A stretch of DNA of 64,000 bases from Candidatus Enterousia sp. (GTDB lineage: Bacteria; Pseudomonadota; Alphaproteobacteria; Rs-D84): contig JAZSNY010000025.1 in assembly GCA_045536625.1 (NCBI GenBank), forward strand, positions 1,147 to 65,146, written 5' to 3'. The notes beneath the pieces are model-generated. The model did not search any database. It was not told the origin of the DNA and worked only from the letters and a program-made list of their open reading frames with translations. Every line of letters begins with the position of its first letter. Positions within the stretch are counted from its first letter, which is position 1. The position numbers and the translations under genes are program-made. This document shows, one piece after another, positions 2,281 through 53,870 of the stretch.

Positions 2281-3708
2281 ATGAATATTCAATTTTCTGA
2301 TTTAATTGAAAATGCTCCGCACGCCCCGGGCGTGTATCGAATGTATGACAGTGAAAACAACCTGTTATACGTGGGCAAAGCAAAAAACTTGTCAAACCGC
2401 CTGAAACAATACCTGGATATATCCAAATTGGAACTACATAAACAGGTTATGCGCACACTAGTATCGCGGGTTGAATGGGAAACCGTTCCAACCGAATCGG
2501 ATGCCCTGCTGCGGGAACAGGAATTAATAAAATCCGAAAAACCAAAATACAACATAATGCTAACAGATGGAAAAATGTATCCAATGTTGGCACTAACAAC
2601 CGGTGATTTTCCACGCCTGTTAAAGTTTCGCGGAAAAATTAATCAACGTCGTGACGTATACGGCCCATATCCTTCTGTATCCAGTTTGAACGAAACAATA
2701 AAAACAATACAAAAGGTCTGTCAAATTCGCACATGCACCGACACACAAATGCGCAATCGCACACGCCCATGTTTGTTACATCAAATCGGACGATGCAGTG
2801 CACCGTGTTGCACCCCAGACAAACAAAAATACGCAGATTCCGTGCGTATAGCGCGAAAAATATTAACAGGGGACAGCGCACCAATCATATCCGACCTGAC
2901 ACAACAAATGAAGACATTTGCACAAAATATGGACTATGAATCCGCCGCGGTTATACGCGACAAAATTTCCGCATTAACACACACATCAAATCGCGGAAAC
3001 GCCCAAAAACATGCGTATACACCAAATTTAAACTGGGACAAAAATGTATCAGAGTTAGAAAAGTGGTTGGGCATAAAAATAAACACAGCAGGCGTATTTG
3101 ACAATTCACATTTATTCGGCAAACAGCCCGTTGGCGCCATGATAACCTTTGGACACAACGGATTTGACAAATCTGGTTATCGCCATTTTAAATTACATGA
3201 CAAATCACGCGCCGGCAACGACATTGCAATGATGTCGGAATTTGTACAAAGGGCCACCGAACGGGGACCAAAATTAGATTTAATAATTGTTGATGGTGGC
3301 ATTGCACAATGGCGCATTGCAAAGCGCGCTGCGGGCAACATCCCCGTTTTTGGCGTAACCAAGGGCATCGTTCGCGATGGCGACGAACACTTTATATTGC
3401 CGGATGGCACCGAATACCATGACCTGCCCCGGGATTCAGAACTGTTTTTAATGTTACGAACCGTCCGCGACGAAGCGCACCGTTTTGTCATCACATACCA
3501 CCGTACATTACGCGCGAAACAAATGACCGCATCTGTTCTGGATGAAATTGATGGCATTGGTCCAACACGCAAGCGCGCCCTTTTACAGCATTTTGGCACA
3601 CCGCGCGCAATAATTGATGCAGATTTAAATGCATTAAAACATGTTCCCGGCCTTGGGGATAATATCGCAGAAAAAATATATGCCCATTTTCACTCAGAAG
3701 TGATATAA
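2281..3708 (+). CDS. uvrC: Excinuclease ABC subunit C; compact 475-aa form
   Basis: GIY-YIG N-terminus (GVYRMYD...LYVGKAKNL), Cys cluster RPCLLHQIGRCSAPCC, UvrB-interaction motif (YESAAVIRDKISAL), endonuclease domain, C-terminal helix-hairpin-helix (HhH) pair. The typical uvrC-pgsA adjacency is present. Confidence 0.85.
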   Translation: MNIQFSDLIENAPHAPGVYRMYDSENNLLYVGKAKNLSNRLKQYLDISKLELHKQVMRTLVSRVEWETVPTESDALLREQELIKSEKPKYNIMLTDGKMYPMLALTTGDFPRLLKFRGKINQRRDVYGPYPSVSSLNETIKTIQKVCQIRTCTDTQMRNRTRPCLLHQIGRCSAPCCTPDKQKYADSVRIARKILTGDSAPIISDLTQQMKTFAQNMDYESAAVIRDKISALTHTSNRGNAQKHAYTPNLNWDKNVSELEKWLGIKINTAGVFDNSHLFGKQPVGAMITFGHNGFDKSGYRHFKLHDKSRAGNDIAMMSEFVQRATERGPKLDLIIVDGGIAQWRIAKRAAGNIPVFGVTKGIVRDGDEHFILPDGTEYHDLPRDSELFLMLRTVRDEAHRFVITYHRTLRAKQMTASVLDEIDGIGPTRKRALLQHFGTPRAIIDADLNALKHVPGLGDNIAEKIYAHFHSEVI

Positions 3709-3751
3709 TAAACTTAATTCATATATTAATCATAACCTAAGGAGAAAACAT

Positions 3752-4351
3752 ATGAAATTCTTTGTAAACTTTTTATCTGCCTTTCGGATTGCGGCATCTT
3801 TTGCCATTATCCCAACCCTGATGTTCCAAATGTATTGGACAACATTTATTCTGTATGCATTGGCGGCTATGTCGGATTGGTTTGACGGATACCTGGCACG
3901 CAAATACAATGTATGCACAAAAATCGGCGGCGTTATGGATCACATTGGCGACAAATTATTGGTCGTTAACACGTTAATCATGTTGACTGTTATGATGCCG
4001 GTATGGTTTGTTGTTGTACCCGTAATCATCATGATTGCACGCGAATTGTACATATCGGGCCTGCGTGAATTTTTGGGTACCCAGAAAATAGAAATGCCAG
4101 TCCCCAAGGCACGCTTTTCCATGGGCAAGATTAAAACAACACTGCAAATGATTTCAATCGCGGCATTTTTATTAATCTTTGCAATCGGCACATTAATCAA
4201 ACCAAACACCGACAGTCGCACGTTAATGTACATGATTTACATCCTGCCACAAATCGGGATTTATGGATTATGGCTGTCATTAATTGCATCTGTTTGGTCC
4301 GCAACCCAGTACACAAAAACATTCTTGGGACACATGAAGAAAATAAAATAA
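3752..4351 (+). CDS. pgsA: CDP-diacylglycerol--glycerol-3-phosphate 3-phosphatidyltransferase
   Basis: CDP-alcohol phosphatidyltransferase motif DWFDGYLARK...GGVMDHIGDK. Ribosome-binding site aaggagaaaaca precedes the ATG. Sits directly downstream of uvrC. Confidence 0.8.
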   Translation: MKFFVNFLSAFRIAASFAIIPTLMFQMYWTTFILYALAAMSDWFDGYLARKYNVCTKIGGVMDHIGDKLLVVNTLIMLTVMMPVWFVVVPVIIMIARELYISGLREFLGTQKIEMPVPKARFSMGKIKTTLQMISIAAFLLIFAIGTLIKPNTDSRTLMYMIYILPQIGIYGLWLSLIASVWSATQYTKTFLGHMKKIK

Positions 4352-4369
4352 AAAATACGCTATACGCAT

Positions 4370-4397
4370 AAAAACCGGCATTTCTGCCGGTTTTTAT
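4370..4397. terminator. Bidirectional intrinsic terminator between the convergent pgsA and dnaJ genes
   Basis: Hairpin ccggcatttctgccgg flanked by an A-run on one side and a T-run on the other. Confidence 0.6.
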
Positions 4398-4404
4398 TTT
4401 TTTA

Positions 4405-5535
4405 TCAGAACCAACTTTTCTTATCTGTTTTTATATCTGCAAATTCTGCCAAAACCTTCTTTTGCTTATCCGATAATTTTGTTGGAATTTTAATTGCAAC
4501 ATCTATATACAAATCCCCAAAGGCACCACTGCGTCGCACCGATGGCATACCATGCCCACGAACACGCAACTTTTCACCCACCTGGGTACCCGCCGGCACT
4601 TTGATATCCAACTTTTTATCATCAATCGTTTCTATTTCAATTTCACCGCCCAATGCCAACGTCGTAAACGGCACATCCACGCGCATAATCAAATCATTGC
4701 CATGTCGTTCAAAACGTTTATCCGGACGAATTCTGACATCTAAATAGAAATCCCCCGCCGGCGCACCATTTATTCCGGCCTCGCCCTGGCCACTTAAACG
4801 CAGACGCGCGCCATCTTCAATACCCGCGGGAATTTTTACATCCAACGTTCTTTGTTTATGCTGCACCCCCGTACCATCACATTCGGAACACTTTTTTGAA
4901 ATTTTGCGCCCCAGTCCATTACATTCCGGACAAGGCGCCTCCATTGCAAAGAATCCCTGACGCGTTTGCACAAATCCACTGCCCCCACATCGCGAACATA
5001 CCGGCGCCGGCTTACCATCGGCCGTGCCGTGTCCATGACATTTTTCACACTCTACATTGGTCGAAAATTTTACAGTATGCGTTTTACCAAAATATGCATC
5101 TTTTAAATCAATTACCACCTCGTCCAACAGATCTCGTCCACCGCGTTGTGCCGCACCACGTCCCGCGCCCGCACCACCAAAATCTCCAAAACCAAATCCA
5201 CGCATCGCTTCACGCAGAATATCCTCCATGCCTCCACCACCCATATTAAAGTGGAACGCACCATCACCAAATGGATTTCCGCCACCAAAACCGGCCCCTG
5301 CCCCATTACCATTTGCAAAGGCAGCATCACCAAATCTGTCGTACGCGGCACGTTTCTGCGGGTCTTTTAGAATATCAAAGGCATTATTAACTTCTTTGAA
5401 TTTTTCTTCGGCATCTTTATTATCCGGATTTCTGTCCGGATGATATTTCATCACCAACTTGTGATAAGCCTTTTTAATATCGGCATCCGACGCATCACGC
5501 GCGATACCCAAAACTTCATAGGGGTTCTTATTCAT
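4405..5535 (-). CDS. dnaJ: Molecular chaperone DnaJ
   Basis: J-domain YEVLGI...YHPDRNPD, Gly/Phe-rich linker, four CxxCxGxG zinc-finger repeats. Start assigned to the internal ATG giving MNKNPYEV at 5535. Confidence 0.9.
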   Translation of the reverse strand: MNKNPYEVLGIARDASDADIKKAYHKLVMKYHPDRNPDNKDAEEKFKEVNNAFDILKDPQKRAAYDRFGDAAFANGNGAGAGFGGGNPFGDGAFHFNMGGGGMEDILREAMRGFGFGDFGGAGAGRGAAQRGGRDLLDEVVIDLKDAYFGKTHTVKFSTNVECEKCHGHGTADGKPAPVCSRCGGSGFVQTRQGFFAMEAPCPECNGLGRKISKKCSECDGTGVQHKQRTLDVKIPAGIEDGARLRLSGQGEAGINGAPAGDFYLDVRIRPDKRFERHGNDLIMRVDVPFTTLALGGEIEIETIDDKKLDIKVPAGTQVGEKLRVRGHGMPSVRRSGAFGDLYIDVAIKIPTKLSDKQKKVLAEFADIKTDKKSWF

Positions 5536-5667
5536 CTTTCTAATCCATATGGTTATCGATAACAAATATATAGTTGCCCACGCACAAAATTCAACCCCAA
5601 ATTATAATTTAGGTAGAAATTCTTTGGGCTTGCACAAAAATCAAAAATGTTTTAATAATATATTGCT

Positions 5668-7647
5668 ATGACAGATAAAAACACAAACACATATGATGCA
5701 TCAGATATCCAGGTCCTAGAAGGCCTTGAACCCGTTCGCCTGCGCCCCGGCATGTACATTGGGGGCACCGATGAAAAGGCATGGCATCACCTGCCGATTG
5801 AAATTATGGACAATTCGATTGACGAAGCCGTCGCCGGCTTTGCCAAAAAAATCACGGTACATTTAATTGATTCAAAAACAATTGAAATCACCGACGACGG
5901 TCGTGGCATCCCCGTGGATGAACATCCCAAATACCCGGGCAAATCCGCACTAGAGGTTATATTAACAACCCTACATTCCGGCGGGAAATTTAACAACAAT
6001 GTTTATAAAACCAGTGGTGGTCTGCACGGCGTTGGTTCCGCGGTTGTAAATGCCCTGTCATCTGAAATGATTGTAGATATTGCACGTGACGGATACAACT
6101 GGCACCAAACATTTTCACGTGGCATCACCACGTCACCAATGACCCGTGGAGAAGCGACCAAATCACATGGCACAAAAATACGTTTTACCATCGACGACGA
6201 AATATTCGGCGCAAACGCAACGTTCAAACCGATAAAAATCTATCGCATGGCCCGCGCCAAGGCATTTTTATCACGTGGTGTCAAAATCGATTGGCATTGT
6301 AACCCGGAATTATTAACCGAAGACATGAACATCCCCGCCACAACAACATTTTATTACCCAAATGGTGTTGCAGATTTCTTGGCGGAAAAAACGGATTCCA
6401 AACCACGTATTTTGCCCCGCATTTTCAGTGGCAGTGTGGACTTCCCCGATGACAGCGGTCGCGTGGAATGGGCATTAACATTTTTGACTGATGAAAACGG
6501 CGCCGCATCGGATGATGGATTTTTTTCATCCTATTGTAATACAATCGCAACCATTGATGGTGGCACACACGAAACCGGGTTCAAGGCTGCAATTACCCGT
6601 GGCTTAAAGACATATGGCGAAAAAGTAAACAATAAATCCGCCACATCAATTATTGGCGAAGACATATTTGATTCCGTTGCGGCGATTGTATCGGTATTTT
6701 ATAAAACCCCACAATTTTTGGGCCAGACCAAGGAAAAACTTTCCAATCCCGAGGTTGCACGTTACACCGAAAACGCACTGCGCGATCCATGGGAAATGTT
6801 TTTGGCATCCGACCCCAAAACCGCAAACGCACTGTTGGAATTTGTAATCAACCTGGCCAACGCGCGTATAAAAACCAAGGCGGTCAAAGACGTTGCTCGC
6901 AAAACCCCAACCAAACGAATTCGCATGCCGGCAAAATTGGCCGACTGTTCCAAACATGGTATTGCCGGCACGGAATTATTCATCGTCGAAGGCGAATCGG
7001 CCGGTGGAACCGCGAAACAGGCACGTGATCGCGCAACCCAGGCAATCATGCCCCTGCGCGGCAAGGTTTTAAACGTATTTTCAAATTCTGACGAACGCTT
7101 TGGCAACAACCGTGAATTAAATGATTTGATTGATATCATAGGTGCCGGAACCGCCAAAGACTGGAACGAAGACAAACTGCGCTATGAAAAAATCATCGTT
7201 ATGACCGATGCCGACGTCGACGGCAGCCATATTGCATCCCTGTTGATGGCGTTCTTTTATCAATTCATGCCCCAATTAATCTATGGTGGACACCTGTACC
7301 TGTCGTGTCCCCCGTTGTATAAATTAACATGCGGCACCGAATCGATTTACGTTGACACCGACGAAGAATTGGAAAATTTAAAAACAACCAAGTATAAAAA
7401 CAAACGCGTTGAAATATCCCGATTCAAGGGATTGGGCGAAATGATGCCAAACCAATTAAAAGAAACGACCATGTCACCCAAGACAAGGCGCCTGATACGT
7501 GTTGACCTGCCGCCACGCACCGAAGAAGGCGCCGAAGACACAGAAAAGACACGTACAATTGTTTCAGAACTGATGGGCAAGAAACCAGAATTTCGTTTCA
7601 AATTCATTACCGAACACGCCCAATTCGTCAAAGACCTGTTCGTTTAA
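5668..7647 (+). CDS. parE: Type IIA topoisomerase ATPase subunit B; the 659-aa length and GLEPVRLRPGMY motif favour topoisomerase IV ParE over GyrB
   Basis: GHKL ATPase and TOPRIM motifs: LEGLEPVRLRPGMYIGGT, IMDNSIDEA, EGESAGG, VMTDADVDGSHI. Confidence 0.7.
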   Translation: MTDKNTNTYDASDIQVLEGLEPVRLRPGMYIGGTDEKAWHHLPIEIMDNSIDEAVAGFAKKITVHLIDSKTIEITDDGRGIPVDEHPKYPGKSALEVILTTLHSGGKFNNNVYKTSGGLHGVGSAVVNALSSEMIVDIARDGYNWHQTFSRGITTSPMTRGEATKSHGTKIRFTIDDEIFGANATFKPIKIYRMARAKAFLSRGVKIDWHCNPELLTEDMNIPATTTFYYPNGVADFLAEKTDSKPRILPRIFSGSVDFPDDSGRVEWALTFLTDENGAASDDGFFSSYCNTIATIDGGTHETGFKAAITRGLKTYGEKVNNKSATSIIGEDIFDSVAAIVSVFYKTPQFLGQTKEKLSNPEVARYTENALRDPWEMFLASDPKTANALLEFVINLANARIKTKAVKDVARKTPTKRIRMPAKLADCSKHGIAGTELFIVEGESAGGTAKQARDRATQAIMPLRGKVLNVFSNSDERFGNNRELNDLIDIIGAGTAKDWNEDKLRYEKIIVMTDADVDGSHIASLLMAFFYQFMPQLIYGGHLYLSCPPLYKLTCGTESIYVDTDEELENLKTTKYKNKRVEISRFKGLGEMMPNQLKETTMSPKTRRLIRVDLPPRTEEGAEDTEKTRTIVSELMGKKPEFRFKFITEHAQFVKDLFV

Positions 7648-15114: not shown

Positions 15115-16332
15115 ATGACAATCGGCGATATATTAAAAGAATCATGGCTGTCCATCAGCGGCAATAAAATCCGTTCATTTCTAACGGTATTGGGGATTAT
15201 TATTGGTGTGATGGCGGTGGTTATAATGGTTGCGGTTGGCGAAACCGTACAAAAACAAATCACGGATCAGTTTTCGTCCCTGGGAACTAACACAATCATG
15301 ATTCGTGCGGGCGCGGCGCAAAGTGCGGGCGTACGCACGGGAAATCGTCACACATTGACCATCCAAGATGCCGAATTCATTGCCCAATTACCCGACGTAA
15401 TGGCGGTCACCCCCGTACAAAACGGCGCCGCCCAGGTTATATATGGCAACAAAAACTGGGGCACATCAATGGTGGGTGTATATCCCGATTATACAACGGT
15501 TCAAAATGTTGAAATTGAATACGGCACATTTTTTGATCAATCGGCCGTCCGCAACGCATCAACCTATGCGGTCATCGGTCCCGAAACGGCCCAGGAACTG
15601 GGGCTGCCCAAAAATCCGATTGGCGAAGTTATACGTATTCAAAACACCCCGTTTGTAATCATTGGCGTCACACGGGCCAAGGGCGATTCCGCCATGGGCA
15701 GTCAGGACGACATGGTAATAATTCCCATTACGACATTAAAAAAGCGTCTTCAGGGTTCACGCTTTCCCAATTCTGTAAACATGGTTGCATTAAAACTATT
15801 TGCCGAATCGGACAACAACCTGGCGATTGAACAAATATCGGCATTACTGCGCCAACGTCATCGCCTAAAAGAAGATGCCGACGACGACTTTCAAATTATG
15901 GATATGAAGCAAATCATGGAAACCATGACAACCGTTACGGGATACATGAAATTATTATTAATCGCGATTGCGGCGGTGTCACTTTTGGTTGGTGCCATCG
16001 GCATTATGAACATGATGTTGGTATCGGTTGCCGAACGCACACGCGAAATCGGCATACGCAAGGCCATTGGCGCCCGCGAACGCATGATAATTATACAGTT
16101 CTTGTCCGAATCGGTATTAATATCCTTTATCGGCTCTATGATAGGGTTAATAATCGGCGTTGGCCTGTCCCAGGGGGTTGGTCGCTTTATATTGGGTTAC
16201 AACGTCCCGTTCAGCATTTGGCCCGTCGTACTGTCCGTATCGGTTGCGGTAATTGTCGGGTTATCATCGGGCGTAATGCCCGCGATGAAGGCGGCAAAAT
16301 TAAACCCAATCGACAGCCTGCGCCACGAATAA
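15115..16332 (+). CDS. ABC transporter permease, FtsX/MacB family, with a periplasmic domain
   Basis: 405 aa with an N-terminal transmembrane helix, a large periplasmic domain, a C-terminal FtsX-like four-helix permease, and a conserved ERTREIGIRKAIGA motif. Confidence 0.8.
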   Translation: MTIGDILKESWLSISGNKIRSFLTVLGIIIGVMAVVIMVAVGETVQKQITDQFSSLGTNTIMIRAGAAQSAGVRTGNRHTLTIQDAEFIAQLPDVMAVTPVQNGAAQVIYGNKNWGTSMVGVYPDYTTVQNVEIEYGTFFDQSAVRNASTYAVIGPETAQELGLPKNPIGEVIRIQNTPFVIIGVTRAKGDSAMGSQDDMVIIPITTLKKRLQGSRFPNSVNMVALKLFAESDNNLAIEQISALLRQRHRLKEDADDDFQIMDMKQIMETMTTVTGYMKLLLIAIAAVSLLVGAIGIMNMMLVSVAERTREIGIRKAIGARERMIIIQFLSESVLISFIGSMIGLIIGVGLSQGVGRFILGYNVPFSIWPVVLSVSVAVIVGLSSGVMPAMKAAKLNPIDSLRHE

Positions 16333-16337
16333 CCCCT

Positions 16338-16859
16338 TTGTCATCCCCGCGCCCCCTCTTTTGTCATCCCGCGGCTGGACCGCGGGACCCAGGTTTTGCT
16401 TTTTTCAATTTTTGTTCACAAAAATTGTCATCCCCGCGCAGGCGGGGACAGGGTCTATAAAATTACCCAACCGCCTTTTGGCACGCGTTTCACACACTTT
16501 ACACCACCCCATAAAGAAATTGTCATCCCGCGGCTTGACCGCGGGACCCAGGTTTATCCTTCCCTATCTTTTACAGAAACAACAATTAATCCGCACGCGT
16601 TTCACGCGCATTACCTGGGTTCCGGGGTCGGGCCCCGGAATGACATAAGTGCTTAATTTTTTTCACAAAAATTCTGTTTGGGGTTATTGTATTAAATTTT
16701 AATTATTCCTCCCCCCGTCATCCCGCGACTTGCCCCACGCACCCCAGGTTTGTTTTTTCAAAAACATAAAAAGTTTTGTCATCCCGTGGCTTGACTTTCG
16801 CACCCAGGTTATTTTCATCTTCCCCCGTCATCCCGCGGCTTGACTTTCGCACCCAGGTC
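16338..16859. repeat. Cluster A of short GC-rich palindromic repeat units; 7-8 copies, one of them inverted
   Basis: Copies of TGTCATCCCGCGGCTTGACCGCGGGACCCAGGTT and close variants at 16362-16395, 16521-16555, 16717-16750, 16777-16810 and 16827-16859. Inverted copy at 16613-16646. Variant unit with a TATAAAAT box at 16426-16469. A repeated GCACGCGTTTCAC motif at 16481 and 16593. Confidence 0.85.
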
Positions 16860-16878
16860 ATATTTATCTTATCCCCAC

Positions 16879-16910
16879 AAAAAAACACCCGCGGTTGCGG
16901 GTGCTTTTTG
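16879..16910 (-). terminator. Intrinsic terminator downstream of the 514-aa cysteine-rich gene
   Basis: Hairpin cacccgcggttgcgggtg flanked by an A7 run and a T5 run. Confidence 0.6.
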
Positions 16911-16924: not shown

Positions 16925-18469
16925 TTATTGGATACCGACGCGGAACTGGTCCCCCCAATCGGCAACAACCTGGCCACCGATGGTACATTTCAAATCTTCA
17001 AAACCATTTTCAACCTGGTTCTTCTTGACAACGTTACTGGTGATTAATCCACCGGCGGTTCCCAACACAACACCCGCCACCGAATCAGACACCAAACGCG
17101 ACGTATTAAATTTACCTTCCTCATCCTTCCACACACTTTTTTTGAACCCTTTGGCCATACCCGACAAATTACTGTGCGCATCACGGATTATACGAATTGA
17201 TACACGTAACCTATCCGCCCCGTCATCAACCTGCGGTGGAGGGGGCAAATCCGGTTGCGTACCACATTCACCCGGATTTAATGACATCAAGACAGTCCAC
17301 AATGCATTAAAATCTTCCGTGGTAACATTCGGCGACGCACACAGATCTTTAATTTGATTAATCGTGCTTACAATCGTCGGCTTGTCCTTGCATGAAATCA
17401 ACCATCCATCTAGCAATGCCAACTGTGTCGCATTACACTTAAATGCCTCGCCCGGGGTTGTCTGTTTTGCGACACATTGCCCACGTCCATTTTCAATTTT
17501 AAACTCCATCCCCTCTATAACACAGTTACATTTTTGGCCATCCCATGTTGCAACCGAATTCAGCAGATAACAGCATGCCTTGCCCTCTGCTGTATTACGT
17601 GATGCCAAACATCTTTCCAATGCCGACTCCTCCGAACCACCACCGGAAACTTTTACACATTTTTTATACTTACCTTCCCAAATTTCTCCATCAAGGCGAT
17701 AGTTTGACTGGCACTGTGTAACATAGCCTGTCTCGCTACCATCAGAATTGCAACGCTTGCCGCATTTTACACCACCCGTGATACCCAATGTTTTACAATC
17801 AACGTCCCACGTATCTCCCGCTTTATATCCACTAGTAAGGCAATTTTTCACTGTATCACCGCGCCCCGTCTTATTACATCTCTTTGTCGTACTATTCCAA
17901 ACGGGTTCAAAACCCTCCTTATCATTACACGTACAATAACCACCATTGTCCGTTTTCCACTCTGCCGGGTCACCTTGTTCCTGGGCCTCATAACAAGCAA
18001 TCATTTCATCATTAGTAATCTCACAAACTCTATATAAAATGCTATATTCTCTTGCATGTCCATCTGAACAATTTTTCAGCTTACAAACCACAACACCGTT
18101 TTCTTCCTTAAAATTCGACCCCAATAAATATTTTCCACTTCTTTTTAATGCCCCCTTAGAATAATTCGAAATATCAACCGGCAAACACTCCTCTACCGAT
18201 TCTGCAAAACTGACCCATGTATCTTCCACCCCCCACTGATCATAACACTGCACAACTTCATCCCCTCTTATAATCACCGCACCATACGGGCACTCATCAT
18301 CACCAACATCCGCATCACATACATACCCACTTGTATCGGAAATATCAAACCGCTCGTCCTGATTGGCCTTAGTATATATATCACCACTCATTAGATTACA
18401 ATTTTCCGCCCCCCATGCACCCGACATGGCGCCACAGATTAACATTGACAACATCAGAAATTTTTTCAT
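16925..18469 (-). CDS. Secreted cysteine-rich protein, hypothetical
   Basis: Signal peptide MKKFLMLSMLICGAMSGAWGA; at least 30 Cys in CxxC and CxC patterns. Ribosome-binding site ggggaaggg before the ATG. Confidence 0.55.
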   Translation of the reverse strand: MKKFLMLSMLICGAMSGAWGAENCNLMSGDIYTKANQDERFDISDTSGYVCDADVGDDECPYGAVIIRGDEVVQCYDQWGVEDTWVSFAESVEECLPVDISNYSKGALKRSGKYLLGSNFKEENGVVVCKLKNCSDGHAREYSILYRVCEITNDEMIACYEAQEQGDPAEWKTDNGGYCTCNDKEGFEPVWNSTTKRCNKTGRGDTVKNCLTSGYKAGDTWDVDCKTLGITGGVKCGKRCNSDGSETGYVTQCQSNYRLDGEIWEGKYKKCVKVSGGGSEESALERCLASRNTAEGKACCYLLNSVATWDGQKCNCVIEGMEFKIENGRGQCVAKQTTPGEAFKCNATQLALLDGWLISCKDKPTIVSTINQIKDLCASPNVTTEDFNALWTVLMSLNPGECGTQPDLPPPPQVDDGADRLRVSIRIIRDAHSNLSGMAKGFKKSVWKDEEGKFNTSRLVSDSVAGVVLGTAGGLITSNVVKKNQVENGFEDLKCTIGGQVVADWGDQFRVGIQ

Positions 18470-18561: not shown

Positions 18562-19842
18562 TTATCTGCATTCTTCAATCAACTGTTGAATCTGTGCCGC
18601 CAACACCAGGTCCGATGCACCCTGCTTTTCAATCTGCTTGATTGCATACAAAACCGTTGCATGATCACGACCACCAACAAAGTTACCAATTTCCGATAAT
18701 GACAACTGGGTCGCACCTTTTAAAACCACCATCATCATCTGACGCGCCAACACCAGGTTACGACTGCGACCCGCACCACATACCGCATCATACGACACAC
18801 CCAATTTTTCACACATCATTTTAACCATTGCAACCGGTGTTTTTGCAACCTGTAATGTATCGGCCAACAAACGTGTCGCCACCGCCATATCAACCGACGT
18901 TCCCATCAAATCTGCATATGTTTTGATTTTTGTCGCAATACCCGCAACCACATGACCATCATTTGCCATACGACCCGCCAAAGCATTTGCAACATCCGCC
19001 TTGACCCCCGCACGCATCAACATAACAGATTTTACATGTGCATTTGGTGCCACCACATCCGCAACCAGGCCCGATGCCAACAAACTTTGCGCATGACGAT
19101 CAAAGCCCGTCAAATTACCCGGCATTGCATTTGCCGTCAAAACAATATTTTTACCCGCATTGCGCAAATCAACGATTAATTGCAGGAATTCTTCGGTTGA
19201 TGCCTTTTTGCCGGACAAAGCCTGAACATCATCCAAAATAAATGTATCGCAATTACGACAATAATCCTTGAACGCGAAAACATTATGTTCCTTTAAACTG
19301 CGTGTAAATTCGGAAACAAACTGCGCACCGGACATTTTGATAACACGTGCATTTGACGCACCCGCAATGCAATCGACCAAATGTGACTTACCGCATCCCG
19401 CCGGTCCATAAATAAACAGCGGTGAAAACGCAACCGCACCCGCCGCCAATTTTTTGCATGCCGATACAACAAACAAATTTTCATCCGCCACAACAAAGGA
19501 ATCAAAAGCAACAGATGCGCTTTCAACCGCCACTGGGGCATAAACCTGGGTATTATTGTCGTTTGCAACCGGTGCCACAGATGCCTTGGCCGCACCACGC
19601 ACAACAACGGATGCCCCCAACCCAAATTCCGCCGCCACGGCCGCGATAGTACCGAAATGAACACTGTTGATAAAATCTGCGGAAAATTGATTTTGTGCAC
19701 CCAAAACCAATACACCATCAACAACATCTGCGCTCAAAGGTGCAATCCAAGAAGTATAAGATGCTGCATCAATTTTCGCGGCAATGGCCCCCTTGATTGA
19801 ATCTGGGTTTGTCATTTGTGTTTTTGCCGCCATTGTCTGCAT
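18562..19842 (-). CDS. dnaA: Chromosomal replication initiator DnaA
   Basis: AAA+ Walker A GPAGCGKSHL and a C-terminal DnaA-box-binding helix-turn-helix (RDHATVLYAIKQIEKQ). Start placed at ATG 19842 (MQTMAAK...) with a GGAGAAAAGG ribosome-binding site. An in-frame ATG at 19914 is an alternative start. Confidence 0.85.
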   Translation of the reverse strand: MQTMAAKTQMTNPDSIKGAIAAKIDAASYTSWIAPLSADVVDGVLVLGAQNQFSADFINSVHFGTIAAVAAEFGLGASVVVRGAAKASVAPVANDNNTQVYAPVAVESASVAFDSFVVADENLFVVSACKKLAAGAVAFSPLFIYGPAGCGKSHLVDCIAGASNARVIKMSGAQFVSEFTRSLKEHNVFAFKDYCRNCDTFILDDVQALSGKKASTEEFLQLIVDLRNAGKNIVLTANAMPGNLTGFDRHAQSLLASGLVADVVAPNAHVKSVMLMRAGVKADVANALAGRMANDGHVVAGIATKIKTYADLMGTSVDMAVATRLLADTLQVAKTPVAMVKMMCEKLGVSYDAVCGAGRSRNLVLARQMMMVVLKGATQLSLSEIGNFVGGRDHATVLYAIKQIEKQGASDLVLAAQIQQLIEECR

Positions 19843-20193
19843 GCCCTTTTCTCCTTTTGCTTCCCCTGTCAAAAGAGTTTTCAGGTTGTAAAAACCACCC
19901 CCGCAAAACGCCATTTTCCGATATTTCTATCATCCATGGTATTTTTCGATTTTAAACTCTCTCTCGCGTTTTTATTAAAATGTTATGGATTAATTTCATT
20001 TCTTTTGAAACAAAACCAACCCGCTTTTTTTGATTACCTTCTTCTCGTTTTGGATACGTCAAATAAGTTAAAACATTATTTCCCGTTTACAAGTAATTCT
20101 TGCCCCAAAAAAGCACTTTTATTTTTTGACAACGATTCGTTTTTTCGCCCGTTTTCCGCCCTTTGTATATACAGTGTATAGACAATATTTTTA

Positions 20194-23811: not shown

Positions 23812-25440
23812 TTAGTTCAATGGGGCCCCCCAGTGTTGCTGAATACTGCGTTCCATATCCATCGGGCTAATCAAAACCTGTGGTGTCAGAATAACCACCA
23901 AAACTTCACGCGTGGCGGATGTTTCACGTGACCCCGACAAAGCCATAAAGTCCGGATCCCCAAGGCCATAGCGTGTATCTTCACTGGTCTGTTTTTCAAA
24001 ACCGGACACAACCAACATCTGCCCCGATTCCATAATAACTTCTTGCATGAAACTACGCTCTTCAACCTCGGGCAATTGCAAGGTTACTTCGCCAATCGTC
24101 TGGGTTGACATACGCAACAATTCGCGCACCGACATACGGAACAACAATAAAATTTTGCCATTTTCCAAAACGTTCGGCAACAACTGCATCGTGAACCCGG
24201 TTTCCAAATCATCCTGATCAACGGTACTGGATTCTACGGTCGTAAAGTTACGCGACTCAAAACGTTTAATATATCCGGTTGTGCGCGTATTGCTTACCGG
24301 CGCAACACGGTTTGAACGTGTTGTTACACCAACGTTTGTGACCAAAGACACCTTGCCCTGCTTAGCCAAAGCCTCAATCAATGCATTACTGCCTGCCGCC
24401 CCCGACAAAGAACCATTCATAATTTGATCATTCGTATACGCCCCTTCCACCACAGAACCGTTCTCCAAGTGCGTAGCCCCAGTCAAAGCCGATACCGTAT
24501 TCGACAAAACTGCAATATTCATCGAGCTAGCCTCGGTCGATGCCAGGTTATTCTTAGGATTCGCCACGATATTCAACCCCGACGTTGAATTAATGGCCGC
24601 AGCCAAATTCAACCCAAACGCCGAATCGTTTGAAATTGTAACCTGTAATACTTTTACATCAATTGTGATTAACTGGCTAAGACGTTTATTTTGACGTTCA
24701 ATATATTCACCCACACGTGCCAACACGGACGGAGACGCAGTAACCGTAATTGTCCCCAAACTGCGAGAAACCGTAAAGTCCGCATTCGATGACTTTCCAA
24801 TAATCGACGCAATTGCACTTTCAACCTCGTCCCACTCTTTCAATGTAGATGCCAATGATACTTCGTTTGAATTATCTGTCGACACAGATGTCTGATACGC
24901 AACTTCGGTCCCCAGGGCATACAGTGTAAAAGTTTTTGTTTCCGTTTCATAAAAAACAATCGAATCCCTGTCATAGTACCACAACAAATCTAAATCTGTC
25001 GCAACCTGATTTAACAAACCCGACAATTTTCCTGTATATGCAACATTAACCTGTTTTTTCAATTTTTCTGGCGAGACTTGGCCATCAATCTTAACAGGAA
25101 TCCCAGTAATAGAATATACATCATTGGCCAAAACCTGTAACGACACAGGTTCATTCAACAATATAGTAACCCCCGTATCCGTCTCAAATTTAGACGGTAA
25201 TTTATTACGATGTTCCAACGTCACGGACTTATTTCCCAACCAAACACCTTCGGACATAGAAACGGTATCTCCACTGGCCACCTTGGCACGCGGATTTTTC
25301 GCCATTTCAAAGGCATCATACGCATTAATAAAATCCTGATCTACGGACGCCGCGACCTTGGCAGATTCACGTTTAGCGCACCCCGTAAACGTTGCCAATA
25401 CCACCGCGGACAAAATCAAAAATTTCATTGGCTTTATCAT
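23812..25440 (-). CDS. Secretin-family outer-membrane lipoprotein, resembling the type IVb pilus secretins PilN and BfpB
   Basis: Lipoprotein signal ending FTGC; C-terminal secretin-like pattern LQLPEVEERSF...GQMLVVSGF...REVLVVILTPQVL. Ribosome-binding site aggagag. Confidence 0.55.
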   Translation of the reverse strand: MIKPMKFLILSAVVLATFTGCAKRESAKVAASVDQDFINAYDAFEMAKNPRAKVASGDTVSMSEGVWLGNKSVTLEHRNKLPSKFETDTGVTILLNEPVSLQVLANDVYSITGIPVKIDGQVSPEKLKKQVNVAYTGKLSGLLNQVATDLDLLWYYDRDSIVFYETETKTFTLYALGTEVAYQTSVSTDNSNEVSLASTLKEWDEVESAIASIIGKSSNADFTVSRSLGTITVTASPSVLARVGEYIERQNKRLSQLITIDVKVLQVTISNDSAFGLNLAAAINSTSGLNIVANPKNNLASTEASSMNIAVLSNTVSALTGATHLENGSVVEGAYTNDQIMNGSLSGAAGSNALIEALAKQGKVSLVTNVGVTTRSNRVAPVSNTRTTGYIKRFESRNFTTVESSTVDQDDLETGFTMQLLPNVLENGKILLLFRMSVRELLRMSTQTIGEVTLQLPEVEERSFMQEVIMESGQMLVVSGFEKQTSEDTRYGLGDPDFMALSGSRETSATREVLVVILTPQVLISPMDMERSIQQHWGAPLN

Positions 25441-25472
25441 ATTTACACTCTCCTACGACATCCGTAATTAAA

Positions 25473-26447
25473 TTATTCCTGAGATGTTGAAATCACCAAC
25501 ACTCTATTACCTTTATAAAATTTTGCATATGGGATTGGTGTCGCACGCCCAAAATTCCGCACCAAAGCCGACGCAACATCAACAAAACGCCCTTTAAACA
25601 CCGCACTGGCCTCAATTGGATATTCACGCGGGGTCGTCCAAACCAAATCCCACCCCTCTTTATCACACCAAGACTGTAAAACCTCGCGCAAGGTCTGTCC
25701 ATTTGCCACAACCCACGAACGAACCTGATCTGTCAAAACTGCCGGCGCCTCAGCATCAGCAGAAGAATCAACCAAAATCTCAGACTCGGAATTTTCTTCT
25801 ATTATCTCTTCAACAACGGTCGTTCCATCCTCGCGCGTAACAATACGTTTACCATCGGCAGTTTTGCCTTCAATACGCATCCCATTTCGCGCAGCAAAGG
25901 CCTCGTAACCATCCCCATACTTTCCACAATCTTTACGCCCACTGCGCGACACAGCCAAAACATTTCCGCCATCATCCTCCAAAACCTCGCGATGTAACAG
26001 GGGCATCTCAGAACTGTTATAACATTCATCATCAAACCCAACTGGAATTTGATTCCCATGCAACATATTTGCCCCACCAGACCATCCGGCAAATTCACCA
26101 CGCGCCCCAAGATTGAAATTATTTTCCACAACCAAATCAGCACCTATTTTGGACACAATTCGAATATTATCATCCTGTTTTTTCTTGGAACAAACACCAT
26201 GTTCACACGACACCTCAACATCGGCATCCGACCCCGCCAAAGGCCACGCAGGCACCTCAACCGGCGCCTGGTACATCTCCCGCATATCAATTTGGGTATC
26301 CTCTACCTGTTCATATTGGGCACCATCTACAATTTTATCCTGCTCATAAAACACTTCTGACGTAACAACCTGGGGCATCGAATTAGATGCAAAACAATAC
26401 CCCACAGCGGTGGCAAACATCGCAAAAATCAATATCTTACGGAACAT
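25473..26447 (-). CDS. Periplasmic protein co-transcribed upstream of the secretin gene; possible pilus or secretin accessory protein
   Basis: Signal peptide present; conserved-looking C-terminal domain VRSWVVANGQTLREVLQSWCDKEGWDLVWT. Ends 33 nt upstream of the secretin gene. Confidence 0.4.
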   Translation of the reverse strand: MFRKILIFAMFATAVGYCFASNSMPQVVTSEVFYEQDKIVDGAQYEQVEDTQIDMREMYQAPVEVPAWPLAGSDADVEVSCEHGVCSKKKQDDNIRIVSKIGADLVVENNFNLGARGEFAGWSGGANMLHGNQIPVGFDDECYNSSEMPLLHREVLEDDGGNVLAVSRSGRKDCGKYGDGYEAFAARNGMRIEGKTADGKRIVTREDGTTVVEEIIEENSESEILVDSSADAEAPAVLTDQVRSWVVANGQTLREVLQSWCDKEGWDLVWTTPREYPIEASAVFKGRFVDVASALVRNFGRATPIPYAKFYKGNRVLVISTSQE

Positions 26448-36681: not shown

Positions 36682-37980
36682 ATGAAGAAATTCTTTATCC
36701 AAACCTTTGGTTGTCAAATGAACGTATACGACGGTTGGCGTATTGCCGCGATGCTGAAACATCATGGCATGGCCCAAACAAACAACGTCGCAGACGCAGA
36801 TATTATTATTTTAAACACCTGCGCCGTTCGTGCCAAGGCAACAGATAAAGTATTTTCTGCCCTGGGGCGTATCAGACGCGCAAAAAAGCCCTCTGCCCTG
36901 TTTGGAATTGTTGGTTGTGTCGCACGCGAATCGGGCACAGATGCTTTTCGTCGAATTCCCGAATTAAACTTTGTCCTGGGCCCGCAAAGTTACCACAAAC
37001 TGCCCGAGATATTAAATAACCCAGACGCGCGTTTATTTAATATTGATTTGGGCGGGCTGGAAAAATTTGATTCCCTGCCCCAGATGGAAACTTCACCACG
37101 CGTTGCATATATCCCAATCCAGGAAGGCTGCAACCATTGTTGCACATATTGTATCGTACCGTACACACGCGGACGTGAAATTTCACGTTCCTTTGAATCG
37201 GTAATACGCGACACCATCCACGCATCAAAAACCGGCGCAATTGAAATTTGTTTCTTGGGACAAAATGTAAATGGATATAAATACAACGACGAAAACGGCA
37301 ATACATATCGCCTGTCCGACCTAATACGTGAAACGGCAAAAATCCCGGAAATCATGCGTATACGCTTTACTTCCAGTTATCCAACCGAAATGACAGACGA
37401 CCTGATTGACATGTTCAAAACTGAACCAAAACTGTTACCGTTTTTAAACATGCCAATTCAAAGTGGCGCCCCAAATGTATTAAAACGCATGAACCGCCCA
37501 TACAGTTTGGAATTATACTGCGACATCATAAATAAATTAAAATCCGCACGTCCCGACATTCAAATATCATCTGACTTCATTGTTGGTTTTCCGGGTGAAA
37601 CCGATTCGGATTTTGAACAAACGATGCAAATTGCCAAACAAATAAAATATATAAACTCGTATTCTTTTAAGTATTCACCACGCCCACATACCGGCGCCGC
37701 ATTAATGCCCGACCAAATACCTGAAAAAATAAAGTCAGAACGCCTGACGAAACTGGACACCTATCTTAACGAAGTCCAACGCGAATTTAATATATCGTGT
37801 ATTGATAAAACATTATCATGCCTGCTGGAAGGGGCCGACAAAACTGGGAAACACTTGATATATCGTACACCTTACATGCAACCATGTATTGTTGCACACC
37901 GTGACAACGCACCCGTTTTGACGGACATTATCATCACAGATGCAAACAAGGCATGTCTGCGAGGGAAATTTATTAGCTAG
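36682..37980 (+). CDS. miaB: tRNA-i6A37 methylthiotransferase MiaB (radical SAM)
   Basis: N-terminal FGCQMN; radical-SAM CNHCCTYC; TRAM-type C-terminus. Confidence 0.85.
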   Translation: MKKFFIQTFGCQMNVYDGWRIAAMLKHHGMAQTNNVADADIIILNTCAVRAKATDKVFSALGRIRRAKKPSALFGIVGCVARESGTDAFRRIPELNFVLGPQSYHKLPEILNNPDARLFNIDLGGLEKFDSLPQMETSPRVAYIPIQEGCNHCCTYCIVPYTRGREISRSFESVIRDTIHASKTGAIEICFLGQNVNGYKYNDENGNTYRLSDLIRETAKIPEIMRIRFTSSYPTEMTDDLIDMFKTEPKLLPFLNMPIQSGAPNVLKRMNRPYSLELYCDIINKLKSARPDIQISSDFIVGFPGETDSDFEQTMQIAKQIKYINSYSFKYSPRPHTGAALMPDQIPEKIKSERLTKLDTYLNEVQREFNISCIDKTLSCLLEGADKTGKHLIYRTPYMQPCIVAHRDNAPVLTDIIITDANKACLRGKFIS

Positions 37981-39533
37981 AAAATTGCACGCGCATTAAC
38001 CGAAATCCTGTATGACGTAATATCCGCCATTGAAACAACCGACGCAGAGAAATCGCCACCAACCCCATCCATATCACCCCAGAAACCAACACACCCCATA
38101 AATTCCAATTCTGAATTAGTATTTACATTTATACCGATGCCATAATTATATTTTATTCCCAACATATCATAATCATAACGAATATCCATACCCACAACCC
38201 CGTAATTACGTTGGGCTTGATACTTTTCAACATCTGTATAATCTGCACCGACACCAACAAAAGGCACACTCCAAAACGAATCGGCAACTTTAAATTTATA
38301 TCCAACACTGCTTTCCAAATTCAGGCCTATTCCCACCGGCCCGGTTACAATATTATTTTCATAGAGTGCGCAATCAATATCAAAAACATAACGCAAAACA
38401 TCTAACCCCCCACGCACAAACAAATTATTTTCAAAAGTATATTCTGCCATAAAACCGACACCATAAATCACCCCCGAAAACACATCCACATCCGATTTAA
38501 ATTCTATGTCACCAACATGTCCAACAATCCCAAGTCTAAAATTTTCATCCACATTAACAACATATCCCAAATTCAATCCCCACACATAAAAATCATTACT
38601 CCATCCCATAAATGGATTTAATAGTACGCCACCATTACGCATATAATCATCACGAAATATTACACCAACAACACGAATAATATTTAATAAAACATCTGGG
38701 TTCAAACGTGCACTTTTCGTCATAACACGATGCAATTCATTCATATCATTCGCGGCATCCAACGCATTAATCAAATCATCTTCCGAATCACGCATACGCA
38801 AAGAATCAAGAAACGCACCCAATTCATCACCAAAAATTTTGGAATAATCCGTTTCACGAACACGTGTAAAAATCAGATTACCATCCCGAATATACGCCAC
38901 ATCTGAAAACAATCTGTCCGCATTATCCGACAACACACGCACAGTACCACTTCCCGATACATTTTTCATGAACACAACATCATACAAGTCACCCAAATCA
39001 TCTATTTTAAATATCACATCACCTTCAATTGTTATCGGCACTTCTATTCCTGAGGTAACACCATTTATATCCAAGACAGAATTTTTCAATATTATTTCAT
39101 CCGCCATATTTGCAAAATCAATCACATGCGCCAAAGACAAATCATCCACACCATCAATCATTACAGAATATGGCACCATAAAACCACCGGAAACCATATC
39201 AGCATTACCTGACACCACCTGAAACAATCGTGCATATTCACCCAGATAAAAATTTGAATCTATCACCCCACGATTCTTTACAAATAAATCACAACGGTCA
39301 CATAAATATATATCTGTTTTTAATTCACCATTATTTTCCAAAAGAATTGTTTCCGTAACAAACAACGTATCGGGCGCATACATAACATCCGTTCCAATAA
39401 CTAAATCAGAACGTGCATATTTATCACCCAACCAAACACTGCCGTTTACAATATCGGCACACACAGCTGCAACTGGCAACAAACAAGACAACAAAAAAAT
39501 TGCAACAGGTTTCATTTCCCATGATACTATCAC
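37977..39533 (-). CDS. Outer-membrane beta-barrel protein, possibly autotransporter-like
   Basis: Signal peptide; C-terminal beta-strand pattern ending in Phe (ISVNARAIF). Confidence 0.45.
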   Translation of the reverse strand: MIVSWEMKPVAIFLLSCLLPVAAVCADIVNGSVWLGDKYARSDLVIGTDVMYAPDTLFVTETILLENNGELKTDIYLCDRCDLFVKNRGVIDSNFYLGEYARLFQVVSGNADMVSGGFMVPYSVMIDGVDDLSLAHVIDFANMADEIILKNSVLDINGVTSGIEVPITIEGDVIFKIDDLGDLYDVVFMKNVSGSGTVRVLSDNADRLFSDVAYIRDGNLIFTRVRETDYSKIFGDELGAFLDSLRMRDSEDDLINALDAANDMNELHRVMTKSARLNPDVLLNIIRVVGVIFRDDYMRNGGVLLNPFMGWSNDFYVWGLNLGYVVNVDENFRLGIVGHVGDIEFKSDVDVFSGVIYGVGFMAEYTFENNLFVRGGLDVLRYVFDIDCALYENNIVTGPVGIGLNLESSVGYKFKVADSFWSVPFVGVGADYTDVEKYQAQRNYGVVGMDIRYDYDMLGIKYNYGIGINVNTNSELEFMGCVGFWGDMDGVGGDFSASVVSMADITSYRISVNARAIF

Positions 39534-41338: not shown

Positions 41339-41953
41339 CTAGAACATAAACCTGATGCCAATATCACCACCAAAGTTATGCAACCCGGAATTGATATCAA
41401 CATAGGTATAACGTGCAGCCAAATCAACCGCAAAGCGTTCCATATCAAATGTCACGCCCAATGTCCCCATTGCCGAGAAACGTGTTTCATCCTTGCTGTG
41501 ACTTGGCACCAATGTTCCATGACGTTTAACATCAGTCATTGCGATACCCGCACCAACACCTATGAACGGACGAACGATTTTATATGAACCAAATTCCATA
41601 TAGTTATTCCATAATAACGTCTGCATTTTTGCTTCAACATCAACGGTACCCGCATCACCAAAGCGTTCAGAATCAGACAGTTTACCAAAATAAGACCATT
41701 CAATTTCTGAACGAACGGTATCACAGACCTCTAACCCCAATGCGGCGCGCCCCTGAAAAATATAATCCGTCATAGATTCTTTATTGCCATTATATTTATA
41801 ATTCAGGTTTGAATAACTCATACCACCTCTCAGGCCAACATAAGGATCCATCCCCCACATTTGCCAACTGCTGCCCTGATCCGGATGATTAATCCCTGCA
41901 AAAGCCGGGCATGCAATCAACACCGCCAACGCTGATATTGCTAATTTTTTCAT
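41339..41953 (-). CDS. Small outer-membrane beta-barrel protein (OmpW/OmpA-like porin family)
   Basis: Signal peptide MKKLAISALAVLIACPAFAG; alternating beta-strand pattern; C-terminal Phe (GIRFMF). Confidence 0.55.
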   Translation of the reverse strand: MKKLAISALAVLIACPAFAGINHPDQGSSWQMWGMDPYVGLRGGMSYSNLNYKYNGNKESMTDYIFQGRAALGLEVCDTVRSEIEWSYFGKLSDSERFGDAGTVDVEAKMQTLLWNNYMEFGSYKIVRPFIGVGAGIAMTDVKRHGTLVPSHSKDETRFSAMGTLGVTFDMERFAVDLAARYTYVDINSGLHNFGGDIGIRFMF

Positions 41954-45537: not shown

Positions 45538-45836
45538 TTTTTTGTCCCTTTACGCACGTTTTTCGGCATTTTTTTCTTTTTTGGAATCACATCAGAAAAA
45601 GTATCCAAAACATCACTGGTTGTGTTTTGAATCAAATCATCAATCGGTTTTTCTAAATCAATTTGTTGCTTTAAATTTTCTGATATATCTGAAATTTTCC
45701 ACATAACGCGACGCACCGCATTTACCAACCGTGCCAGGAATCGGGCAACATCGGGCCACAGACGGGCCGGTACAACCAACACAGCCACCAACAATATTAC
45801 AAAAAATTCTGCCCAACTAATTCCAAACATTTGCAT
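45534..45836 (-). CDS. tatB: Twin-arginine translocase subunit TatB
   Basis: MQMFGISWAEFFVILLVAVLVV transmembrane helix followed by an amphipathic helix; sits immediately upstream of tatC. Confidence 0.7.
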   Translation of the reverse strand: MQMFGISWAEFFVILLVAVLVVPARLWPDVARFLARLVNAVRRVMWKISDISENLKQQIDLEKPIDDLIQNTTSDVLDTFSDVIPKKKKMPKNVRKGTKK

Positions 45837-53748: not shown

Positions 53749-53789
53749 ACCCCATCCCGCCCCGGCGGGATTTTTTCCCATCGCGTGGC

Positions 53790-53870
53790 CTGACTACTTT
53801 TTGTCATCCCAACACTTGACCGCACCCCCAGATTATAACTTACTTATTTTTTACAAAAAATTACCCCCAC
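53790..53870. repeat. Cluster B: one degenerate palindromic-repeat unit plus a flank motif
   Basis: ttgtcatcccaacacttgaccgcacccccagatt at 53801-53835, preceded by a dksA terminator hairpin (cccgccccggcggg) at 53752-53778. Confidence 0.6.

Follow-up and report, generated by a model that had tools for sequence, protein, structure and literature searches.

A hypervariable cysteine-rich exported protein beside dnaA in Candidatus Enterousia, and the unrelated cysteine-rich genes and repeats around it

Three cysteine-rich genes in one window

We analysed a stretch of 64,000 nucleotides (nt) from Candidatus Enterousia sp. (assembly GCA_045536625.1, contig JAZSNY010000025.1, positions 1,147 to 65,146), hereafter the window, in which three genes for cysteine (Cys)-rich proteins stand beside clusters of short palindromic repeats. 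An earlier annotation made from the letters alone (below, the sequence-only reading) had described the three as secreted proteins, in a repeat-linked arrangement that resembles the contingency or surface-antigen loci of host-associated bacteria. The three open reading frames (ORFs) are indeed present: A514, a protein of 514 amino acids (aa) encoded directly downstream of dnaA (16925-18469, minus strand); B224, of 224 aa (53940-54614, plus strand); and C751, of 751 aa (55157-57412, minus strand). Host association was borne out as well. The DnaA and MacB proteins of the window are 99.3% and 99.5% identical, respectively, to those of the Candidatus Enterousia sp. contigs L050 and L066, and Enterousia, of the order Rs-D84, inhabits animal guts, has a genome of less than 1 Mb, is devoid of respiration and standard transporters and has been proposed to depend on partner cells (PMC12306168). 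Taking the genome size as ~0.9 Mb, the window covers ~7% of it.

Firstly, we compared the composition and export signals of the three proteins. Cys accounts for 5.8% of A514 (30 Cys), 4.3% of C751 (32 Cys) and 3.6% of B224 (8 Cys), against a window median of 1.25% (n=56 ORFs of at least 150 aa); the very high Cys content claimed for all three is therefore found in A514 and C751, while the enrichment of B224 is merely moderate. Judged from sequence without a predictor, A514 and C751 begin with textbook Sec signal peptides (MKKFLMLSMLICGAMSGAWG before AE and MKRLLGFFMAVILIAPGAFG before AD, respectively), while B224 carries a plausible signal peptide or signal anchor. As in the sequence-only reading, none of the three could be matched to a known family: no significant match was obtained in Pfam, NCBIfam, PHROGs or the PDB sequences and profiles. 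A link to phages was not found either, with no relatives in IMG/VR and no PHROGs match.

Secondly, we assayed whether the three proteins are related. Pairwise BLASTP returned best E-values of 0.30, 5.9 and 1.4, the first for a match that spans signal peptides only, and paralogy was rejected. Their evolution is contrasting: C751 is the member of a family with a conserved core, A514 is hypervariable and B224 is an orphan. A514 and C751 each belong to a large unannotated family restricted to Enterousia, and their named homologues are all annotated 'MAG hypothetical protein, Alphaproteobacteria bacterium' (MAG, metagenome-assembled genome). The gggaa(a/g)gg ribosome-binding site that had been put forward as a common trait is a generic G-rich Shine-Dalgarno-like motif, found also before tatA, dksA, the SPOR gene and the gene at 42261.

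Allelic replacement at the A514 locus

A514 occupies a fixed position. The order dnaA (18562-19914, minus strand), A514-family gene, gap of ~550 bp and macB recurs in four independent conspecific assemblies (L002, L006, L008 and L050/L066), the last gene being a macB/ftsX-type ABC permease (15115-16332, plus strand) that converges on A514 from downstream. Pfam recognised Bac_DnaA on the L002 orthologue of dnaA, and MacB_PCD and FtsX on an orthologue of the permease. Flanking DNA is 91-98% identical among these conspecifics, and the proteins DnaA and MacB have 99-100% aa identity (99% for DnaA). In more distant genomes, a family member lies directly downstream of dnaA (L120) or of mutL (L121).

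Between these flanks, we found that A514 (all its segments on the minus strand) has invariant ends and an exchanged middle. The signal peptide (aa 1-20; 18410-18469) is 100% identical in five of five conspecific alleles, and the C-terminal linker and anchor module (aa 406-514; 16928-17254), which ends in GFEDLKCTIGGQVVADWGDQFRVGIQ and contributes invariant columns to the alignment of alleles (A2), is 92-96% identical. Module N1 of the ectodomain (aa 21-207; 17849-18409) has no nt match in L002 and shares 5-68% aa identity among conspecific alleles; module N2 (aa 208-280; 17630-17848) shares 26-90% and is a mosaic in alignment A2; the membrane-proximal Cys domain (aa 281-405; 17255-17629) shares 26-96%, is conserved in the family and exists in at least two allelic forms, with C287, C300, C314, C316, C332 and C345 invariant in alignment A2. 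Homology with L002 is absent at nt 17848-18408 (aa 21-207) between flanks that are 97-98% identical, and homology with L006 is absent at 17240-18395 (aa 25-410), which places the 5' homology endpoints at 18409 and 18396, respectively. One allele, P0128, joins an N1 of the window type to a mid domain of the P0143 type. The junctions thus fall at the invariant ends that code for the signal peptide and the anchor, and the breakpoints lie inside the coding sequence and not in the repeats. The family has one copy in the window, and tblastn with 20 alternative ectodomains detected nothing outside A514 in these 64 kb. Altogether, A514 is an exported protein whose number of Cys fits an ectodomain with every Cys paired, whose ends are invariant and whose modules have been replaced at a fixed locus between conspecifics.

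The Cys counts follow a parity pattern. In 38 of 40 A514-family members the ectodomain holds an even number of Cys (range 16-34; binomial p=1.5e-9), and in 40/40 exactly one Cys follows the hydrophobic segment; in A514 this lone Cys, C495, sits in a tail of ~33 aa. Such parity suggests that the ectodomain Cys are all paired, which would amount to 14 disulfides in the allele of the window. The spacings include CxC, CC and CxxxC and no CXXC, and the tail ends in FRVGIQ. AlphaFold2 (AF2) gave a confident model of aa 21-400 (predicted local distance difference test, pLDDT, of 80-95), in which small beta-rich domains accompany a helical one; the model is not a beta-barrel. The replacing modules keep an even Cys count and are modelled as folded, which points to purifying selection for folding and disulfide bonding next to extreme diversity. 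The C-terminus, which reads SDSVAGVVLGTAGGLITSNVVKKNQVENGFEDLKCTIGGQVVADWGDQFRVGIQ, holds the most hydrophobic segment of the protein, SVAGVVLGTAGGLITSNVV (aa 463-481; 17027-17083), a Gly-zipper-like putative membrane anchor followed by KK; Gly-zipper profiles (PF05433 or related) matched 1 of 40 family members, at E=0.42.

The family that shares this C-terminus is large. A514 has 1057 homologues, none with a Pfam domain; identity over the full length falls below 50% by about the tenth homologue and most homologues cover the C-terminal ~45% only. An exhaustive HMMER search with aa 280-514 retrieved 948 clusters at 50% identity, in which the match is always C-terminal, in proteins of 380-960 aa. 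Many of these clusters match the last 85-100 aa only, which makes the anchor a module borne by many ectodomains; Pfam scanning of ten such anchor-only relatives found no domain.

C751, B224, the repeats and their neighbourhood

C751 behaves differently from A514. It is an exported and, in its AF2 model, mainly helical protein without a Pfam domain, whose core (aa 105-670; 55403-57100, minus strand, as for the following segments) carries invariant Cys pairs in the family alignment (A1), between a variable low-complexity N-terminal region (aa 21-104; 57101-57352) and variable C-terminal EGF-like CxC modules (55160-55402). At least 999 homologues were found (clusters at 90% identity), the top 120 of which are 60-98% identical over the full length, and 29 of 33 family members have an even Cys count. 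The surface-antigen-like behaviour proposed for the three genes was seen in one of them, A514, where the ectodomain is swapped between ends and flanking genes that are 92-100% identical. In comparison with L001, the C-terminal third of the C751 gene is 73-83% identical in nt and the rest of the gene 98-99%. The AF2 model is weak (mean pLDDT 55.7, above 70 in the C-terminal half only). The EGF-like spacing noted earlier exists as a string, CVNERCRCNDGYVAWGNACVLECG at aa 694-717, modelled as small beta-hairpins, but the Pfam match is insignificant (EGF_MSP1_1, E=0.37, 11.3 bits against a cutoff of 27; weak match in 3 of 33 members). DUF2959 was discarded as a family assignment: its matches in 27 of 33 members are sub-threshold coiled-coil noise (best E=0.0028). 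We conclude that C751 is best seen as a conserved, lineage-specific, disulfide-stapled helical exported protein, probably either a structural component of the envelope or a secreted one.

Some further features of the C751 family were observed. After the signal peptide, aa 21-104 consist of variable Arg-rich 'VSRV' repeats. Within aa 105-180 lies a near-invariant motif, RNxRVSxASINSNPxVRRAGLxLRPSTAEVGGRA, which AF2 leaves disordered; a motif so conserved and yet unstructured in the model suggests a binding or anchoring peptide. In L062, a gene for a 1119-aa Cys-rich exported protein (2623-5982, minus strand) adjoins the C751 orthologue beside a repeat cluster. This protein has in common with C751 a helical Cx7C...CGxxFxxC motif (E=9e-7) and ends in a Gly-zipper segment followed by KIQCVIGGEVIGTYGE, which resembles the A514 tail (E=0.01). 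Such similarities hint at modules shared among the Cys-rich envelope proteins of Enterousia; they do not make paralogues of the genes in the window.

B224 is a strain-specific orphan inserted within a repeat array; a promoter of its own lies at 53880-53909 and a terminator at 54640-54669. Among 5.8 billion proteins, its matches are itself and one protein at 48% identity. It is absent from the conspecific contig L001, in which the gap between dksA and the C751 orthologue measures 291 bp and contains 3-4 repeat units. A truncated Listeria-Bacteroides repeat (Flg_new) at aa 176-222 stays below significance (E=0.36, 11.4 bits against a cutoff of 27). Near repeats in L022, a gene at 6266-7534 (plus strand) encodes a 422-aa exported Cys-rich protein with a Flg_new-like end similar to that of B224.

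We then characterised the repeats. The core TTGTCATCCCGCGGCTTGACCGCGGGACCCAGG occurs about 15 times in the window, 14 of the 15 on the plus strand, and all 15 GTCATYCC cores are confined to three intergenic gaps. Cluster A (16340-16875, plus strand, like the other two) comprises about nine units resembling repetitive extragenic palindromic (REP) sequences or miniature inverted-repeat transposable elements (MITEs), located where the 3' ends of macB and A514 converge, in an arrangement that differs in L002, L006 and L008; cluster B (53801-53845) is one degenerate unit, bounded by the terminator of dksA and the promoter of B224; and cluster C (54712-55075) comprises about seven REP/MITE-like units between the B224 and C751 terminators. 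The claim that repeats stand beside all three genes is accurate, these being the only repeat-bearing gaps of the window, at ~55 nt (A514), ~82 nt (C751) and ~97 nt (B224) from the stop codons. As for their palindromic nature, an 8-bp GC hairpin (-14 to -16 kcal/mol) is present in ~7 of 15 copies of the ~45-nt unit, while the other 8 are degenerate and non-palindromic; stem variants are compensatory (CCCGCGG/CCGCGGG versus TCCGGGG/CCCCGGA). A Rfam scan of the window found two tRNAs only, and no RNA family in the repeats; a literature search for peptide-like translations of the repeat (VIPRLDRG and similar) retrieved no papers.

Intrinsic terminators lie between the stop codons and the repeats. 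That of A514 (16886-16903, CACCCGCGGTTGCGGGTG) is bidirectional, with T-runs on both strands, and separates the stop codon from cluster A; the others are found at 55114-55135 (C751, minus strand), 53754-53771 (dksA) and, for B224, at the position given above. Because each flanking gene has its own terminator, the repeats sit in terminator-bounded spacers. Their number is labile: the gap between C751 and dksA has no unit in L123, 3-4 in L001, and at least 8 together with B224 in the window. Orthologous loci in L004, L120 and L121 (gaps of 26-47 bp) and in L123 are free of repeats.

The element is neither specific to these genes nor to this lineage. In other Enterousia loci, it flanks rpsO, L25-like, DedA-like, GIY-YIG, rubrerythrin-like and other genes, and 22 of the 25 gene ends that face repeats in the window and the other analysed Enterousia loci are 3' ends. 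An exact 31-mer, GTCATCCCGCGGCTKGACCGCGGGAYCCAGG (16520-16552 and further copies in the window; loci L009-L088), is found at no fewer than 111 sites in GTDB genomes, which besides Enterousia belong to Rickettsiales, Coxiellaceae, other Gammaproteobacteria, Deltaproteobacteria, Sedimenticolaceae and Auribacterota MAGs, so that a short palindromic element is identical in very distant lineages. A small GIY-YIG ORF (YhbQ-like; YVYIMAS..NGTLYVG.TSNL..R) lies in or beside repeat clusters in L029 (502-825), L053 (703-1026) and L083 (~4933), 3 of 122 sources, of which two are Enterousia genomes and one is from Sedimenticolaceae. A GIY-YIG nuclease could mobilise the repeats, which we mention as a lead only. 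No REP-associated tyrosine transposase (RAYT, a Y1 transposase) was noticed among the window ORFs, no search having been aimed at it.

We tested whether repeats are associated with Cys-rich genes, defined by a Cys content of 3.5% or more and a length of 150 aa or more. Outside the window, the Enterousia loci have 3 Cys-rich genes among the 18 adjacent to repeats and 1 among the 47 that are not (p=0.06); in other taxa with the same element, the corresponding numbers are 5 of 101 and 12 of 352 (p=0.55). What the window shows is therefore not established as more than chance, and amounts at best to a weak tendency confined to the genus. Plausibly, repeats and Cys-rich genes both prefer the few long, non-essential 3' spacers of a tightly packed genome. 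We conclude that the repeats are generic, promiscuous REP/MITE-like selfish elements, bystanders to the variation of A514.

Other genes of the window describe the cell in which these proteins are made. An autotransporter-like protein (37977-39515, minus strand) and an OmpA-like 8-strand protein (41339-41953, minus strand) both end in a C-terminal Phe, which indicates that this organism has a conventional outer membrane and bears on where A514 is located; altogether the window encodes outer-membrane beta-barrels, LolA and a secretin. The secretin gene and a TcpQ-like gene (23812-26447, minus strand) lie ~5 kb from A514, near dprA, as identified by Pfam on the 98%-identical L002 orthologues. Kept in a genome of this size, they could serve a pilus or competence apparatus or an export route relevant to the Cys-rich proteins. 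Two patches, 61800-63000 in the gltX-like gene (61485-63074) and 45300-45600, are 67-87% identical in nt to a conspecific contig (67-80% for the gltX-like patch) in surroundings that are 96-100% identical; mosaic import of DNA thus also hits housekeeping genes in this species. Nearly the entire window (1-64000) has a strongly negative GC skew (-0.03 to -0.43), and the cumulative skew declines almost steadily; without an inflection at dnaA, that gene does not mark a skew-defined origin here.

A probable variable envelope protein among unrelated neighbours

It is well supported that the surface-antigen idea holds for one gene of the three, A514, which defines a large undescribed family. Our best interpretation, to which we assign a probability of about 55%, is that three separate things lie in this window: A514, a hypervariable envelope protein; C751, an unrelated conserved protein; and the repeats, which are bystanders. 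A514 would be a variable, disulfide-rich protein anchored by its C-terminus in or at the envelope. As the positions of the breakpoints suggest, its ectodomain modules would be exchanged by homologous recombination at the invariant ends that code for the signal peptide and the anchor. The ectodomain would be exposed on or in the envelope, where phage, host immunoglobulin A or the specificity for partner cells could exert diversifying selection, and the protein might act as a variable, protease-resistant coat or as an adhesin, of the type of Giardia's variant-specific surface proteins (VSPs), the variation occurring in the population and not by switching within a clone. The repeats would accumulate, with one orientation predominating, in those few gaps behind terminators that are transcriptionally silent, where their copy number changes fast, and B224 would be a strain-specific gene that landed in one of their arrays.

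A bolder and less probable extension is that the A514 family may be Enterousia's principal hypervariable coat or adhesin, armoured by disulfides and a convergent bacterial counterpart of the Giardia VSPs, expressed from a fixed site beside dnaA, with modules that would set the specificity for host, partner cell or phage, and that it might form a lineage-specific Cys-rich envelope layer with the conserved C751 family and the 1119-aa protein.

Several points weigh against this interpretation. The most hydrophobic 19 residues of A514 (aa 463-481) reach a mean Kyte-Doolittle value of 1.5, which is marginal for a transmembrane (TM) helix, and AF2 models the conserved tail and anchor poorly. In a diderm, a cleaved signal peptide with a single C-terminal hydrophobic segment predicts a periplasmic protein anchored in the inner membrane, for which hypervariability is hard to explain; only an anchor that engaged the outer membrane or some partner protein would keep the ectodomain from being periplasmic. 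Mosaic imports are also seen in the gltX-like gene, so that recombination by itself does not set A514 apart. The p=0.06 enrichment of Cys-rich genes near repeats leaves some room, if weakly, for a non-random link within Enterousia. Finally, all compared genomes are MAGs or metagenome contigs.

The topology is one ground of the alternative that survives best, though we consider it unlikely, namely that A514 is a periplasmic protein of the inner membrane whose diversity results from relaxed constraint and ordinary import of divergent DNA, with no selection at the surface. The divergent patches in the gltX-like gene and at 45300-45600 fit such imports. However, the modules of A514 are swapped for non-homologous sequence (5-28% aa identity), beyond mere divergence; the replacements keep an even number of Cys and model as folded domains; and ~950 clusters at 50% identity are very many for a lineage with genomes of ~0.9 Mb.

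Polymorphic toxin systems swap domains in a modular way on a conserved delivery module. That resemblance, the proximity of the secretin and TcpQ genes, and the failure of the conserved tail to be modelled alone, which suggests dependence on a partner, would all suit a variable part that is an effector, a toxin or a contact-dependent recognition module, with the C-terminus as a signal for secretion or docking, for example to a TcpQ-secretin apparatus. We nevertheless judge this improbable: no toxin, immunity or peptidase domain was detected in 50 scanned family members, no small immunity-like gene adjacent to A514 co-varies with the allele, the neighbours being dnaA and macB, and polymorphic toxins vary at the C-terminus, which in A514 is constant.

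The unified system of the sequence-only reading, in which three related Cys-rich genes form one contingency or surface-antigen system driven to switch or recombine by palindromic clusters, now deserves very little credence. It can draw on the position of the three genes against the only repeat-bearing gaps, on the presence or absence of B224 within an array between conspecifics, on the enrichment of 3/18 against 1/47, and on a weak transitive link through the 1119-aa protein of L062. Against it, the three proteins have no pairwise homology and very different degrees of conservation; terminators part the repeats from the genes, and orthologous loci are free of repeats; repeats flank housekeeping genes, and other taxa show no enrichment. 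By its own terms, the proposal fails if the proteins lack homology and the repeats are as common beside unrelated genes; no homology was found and repeats do stand beside unrelated genes, which essentially refutes the three-gene hypothesis. The comparison of strains that it called for did reveal replacement of the A514 ectodomain and changes in repeat copy number, but with breakpoints in coding sequence. Nor is a contingency locus seen: TRF detected only an AT-rich 10-nt repeat in 2.5 copies upstream of A514 and the 48-nt REP array, and no tract at the A514 start exceeds A6, so that, with the genes and their upstream regions free of simple-sequence repeats, the window free of silent cassettes and the breakpoints outside the repeats, the classical contingency mechanism is unsupported. 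Least credible of all is that the allelic replacement is an artefact of assembly or binning with chimeric contigs, metagenomic though every compared sequence is, because the ORF is intact, with identical ends and at one and the same locus, in five independent assemblies (ENA, NCBI, Logan), the allele ORFs have even Cys counts and the allele classes recur in independent contigs (P0143 and P0144; P0123; P0125 in L003 and L007).

Reading A514 as a variable envelope protein matters for a lineage of widespread, uncultured gut bacteria. For their interaction with hosts or partner cells, the published analysis of Enterousia/Rs-D84 names just 'hypothetical membrane-bound proteins' (PMC12306168), and our literature search found no paper connecting Rs-D84 with cysteine-rich proteins. 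The A514 locus beside dnaA offers a concrete candidate for an interface of interaction or evasion, and a natural marker for typing strains in metagenomes. The two large 'dark' families (A514, ~950 clusters at 50% identity; C751, at least 999 at 90%) deserve family definition and structure determination. Recognising the repeats as generic selfish elements, and not as a switching device, averts an over-interpretation.

Four known systems invite comparison. In the chlamydial OmcA/OmcB and in the Helicobacter Hcp proteins, which are built of Sel1 repeats, disulfides give mechanical or protease stability. The proteins of the window would likewise be exported, Cys-rich envelope proteins of a host-dependent bacterium, but neither A514, B224 and C751 nor 73 members of the A514 and C751 families have a Chlam_OMP6 or Sel1 match in Pfam, and the three proteins have no other significant Pfam match and no structural match in the PDB. 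REP sequences and bacterial interspersed mosaic elements (BIMEs) of Enterobacteria and Pseudomonas, as well as the Rickettsia palindromic elements (RPEs), are short (~35-45 nt), GC-rich, imperfect palindromes. Like these, the repeats of the window are short and GC-rich; they come in intergenic clusters, mostly at 3' ends, differ in copy number from strain to strain and, in about half of the copies, form hairpins with compensatory variants. Unlike classical REPs, they have lost the palindrome in the other half and have a 31-mer common to distant phyla, and in contrast to RPEs, none of them is inserted in an ORF here.

The Msp2/P44 proteins of Anaplasma and Ehrlichia (Rickettsiales) are outer-membrane beta-barrels whose variation arises by segmental gene conversion, with many silent pseudogene cassettes of one genome as donors. 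A514 is similarly alphaproteobacterial and host-associated, with conserved ends flanking a hypervariable region that is recombined at one expression locus; unlike Msp2/P44, it is not a beta-barrel, and no silent cassettes were found in the ~7% of a genome that the window covers. The closest analogue is the VSP of Giardia lamblia, in which a variable Cys-rich ectodomain is joined to a conserved C-terminal TM segment and a short tail (PMC10156722). A514 is also an exported protein of a gut-dwelling, anaerobic, partner- or host-dependent organism, and likewise sets a variable Cys-rich ectodomain (5-96% identity) on a conserved hydrophobic segment with a Cys-bearing tail (92-96%). It has no similarity to VSPs in sequence or fold, no CXXC, and a tail of ~33 aa in place of CRGKA; moreover, VSPs form a family of ~136 genes of which one is expressed per cell under a control resembling RNA interference, whereas A514 is a single locus with allelic replacement in the population. 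By analogy only, then, and not as a member of the family, A514 would resemble a Giardia VSP in its working mode.

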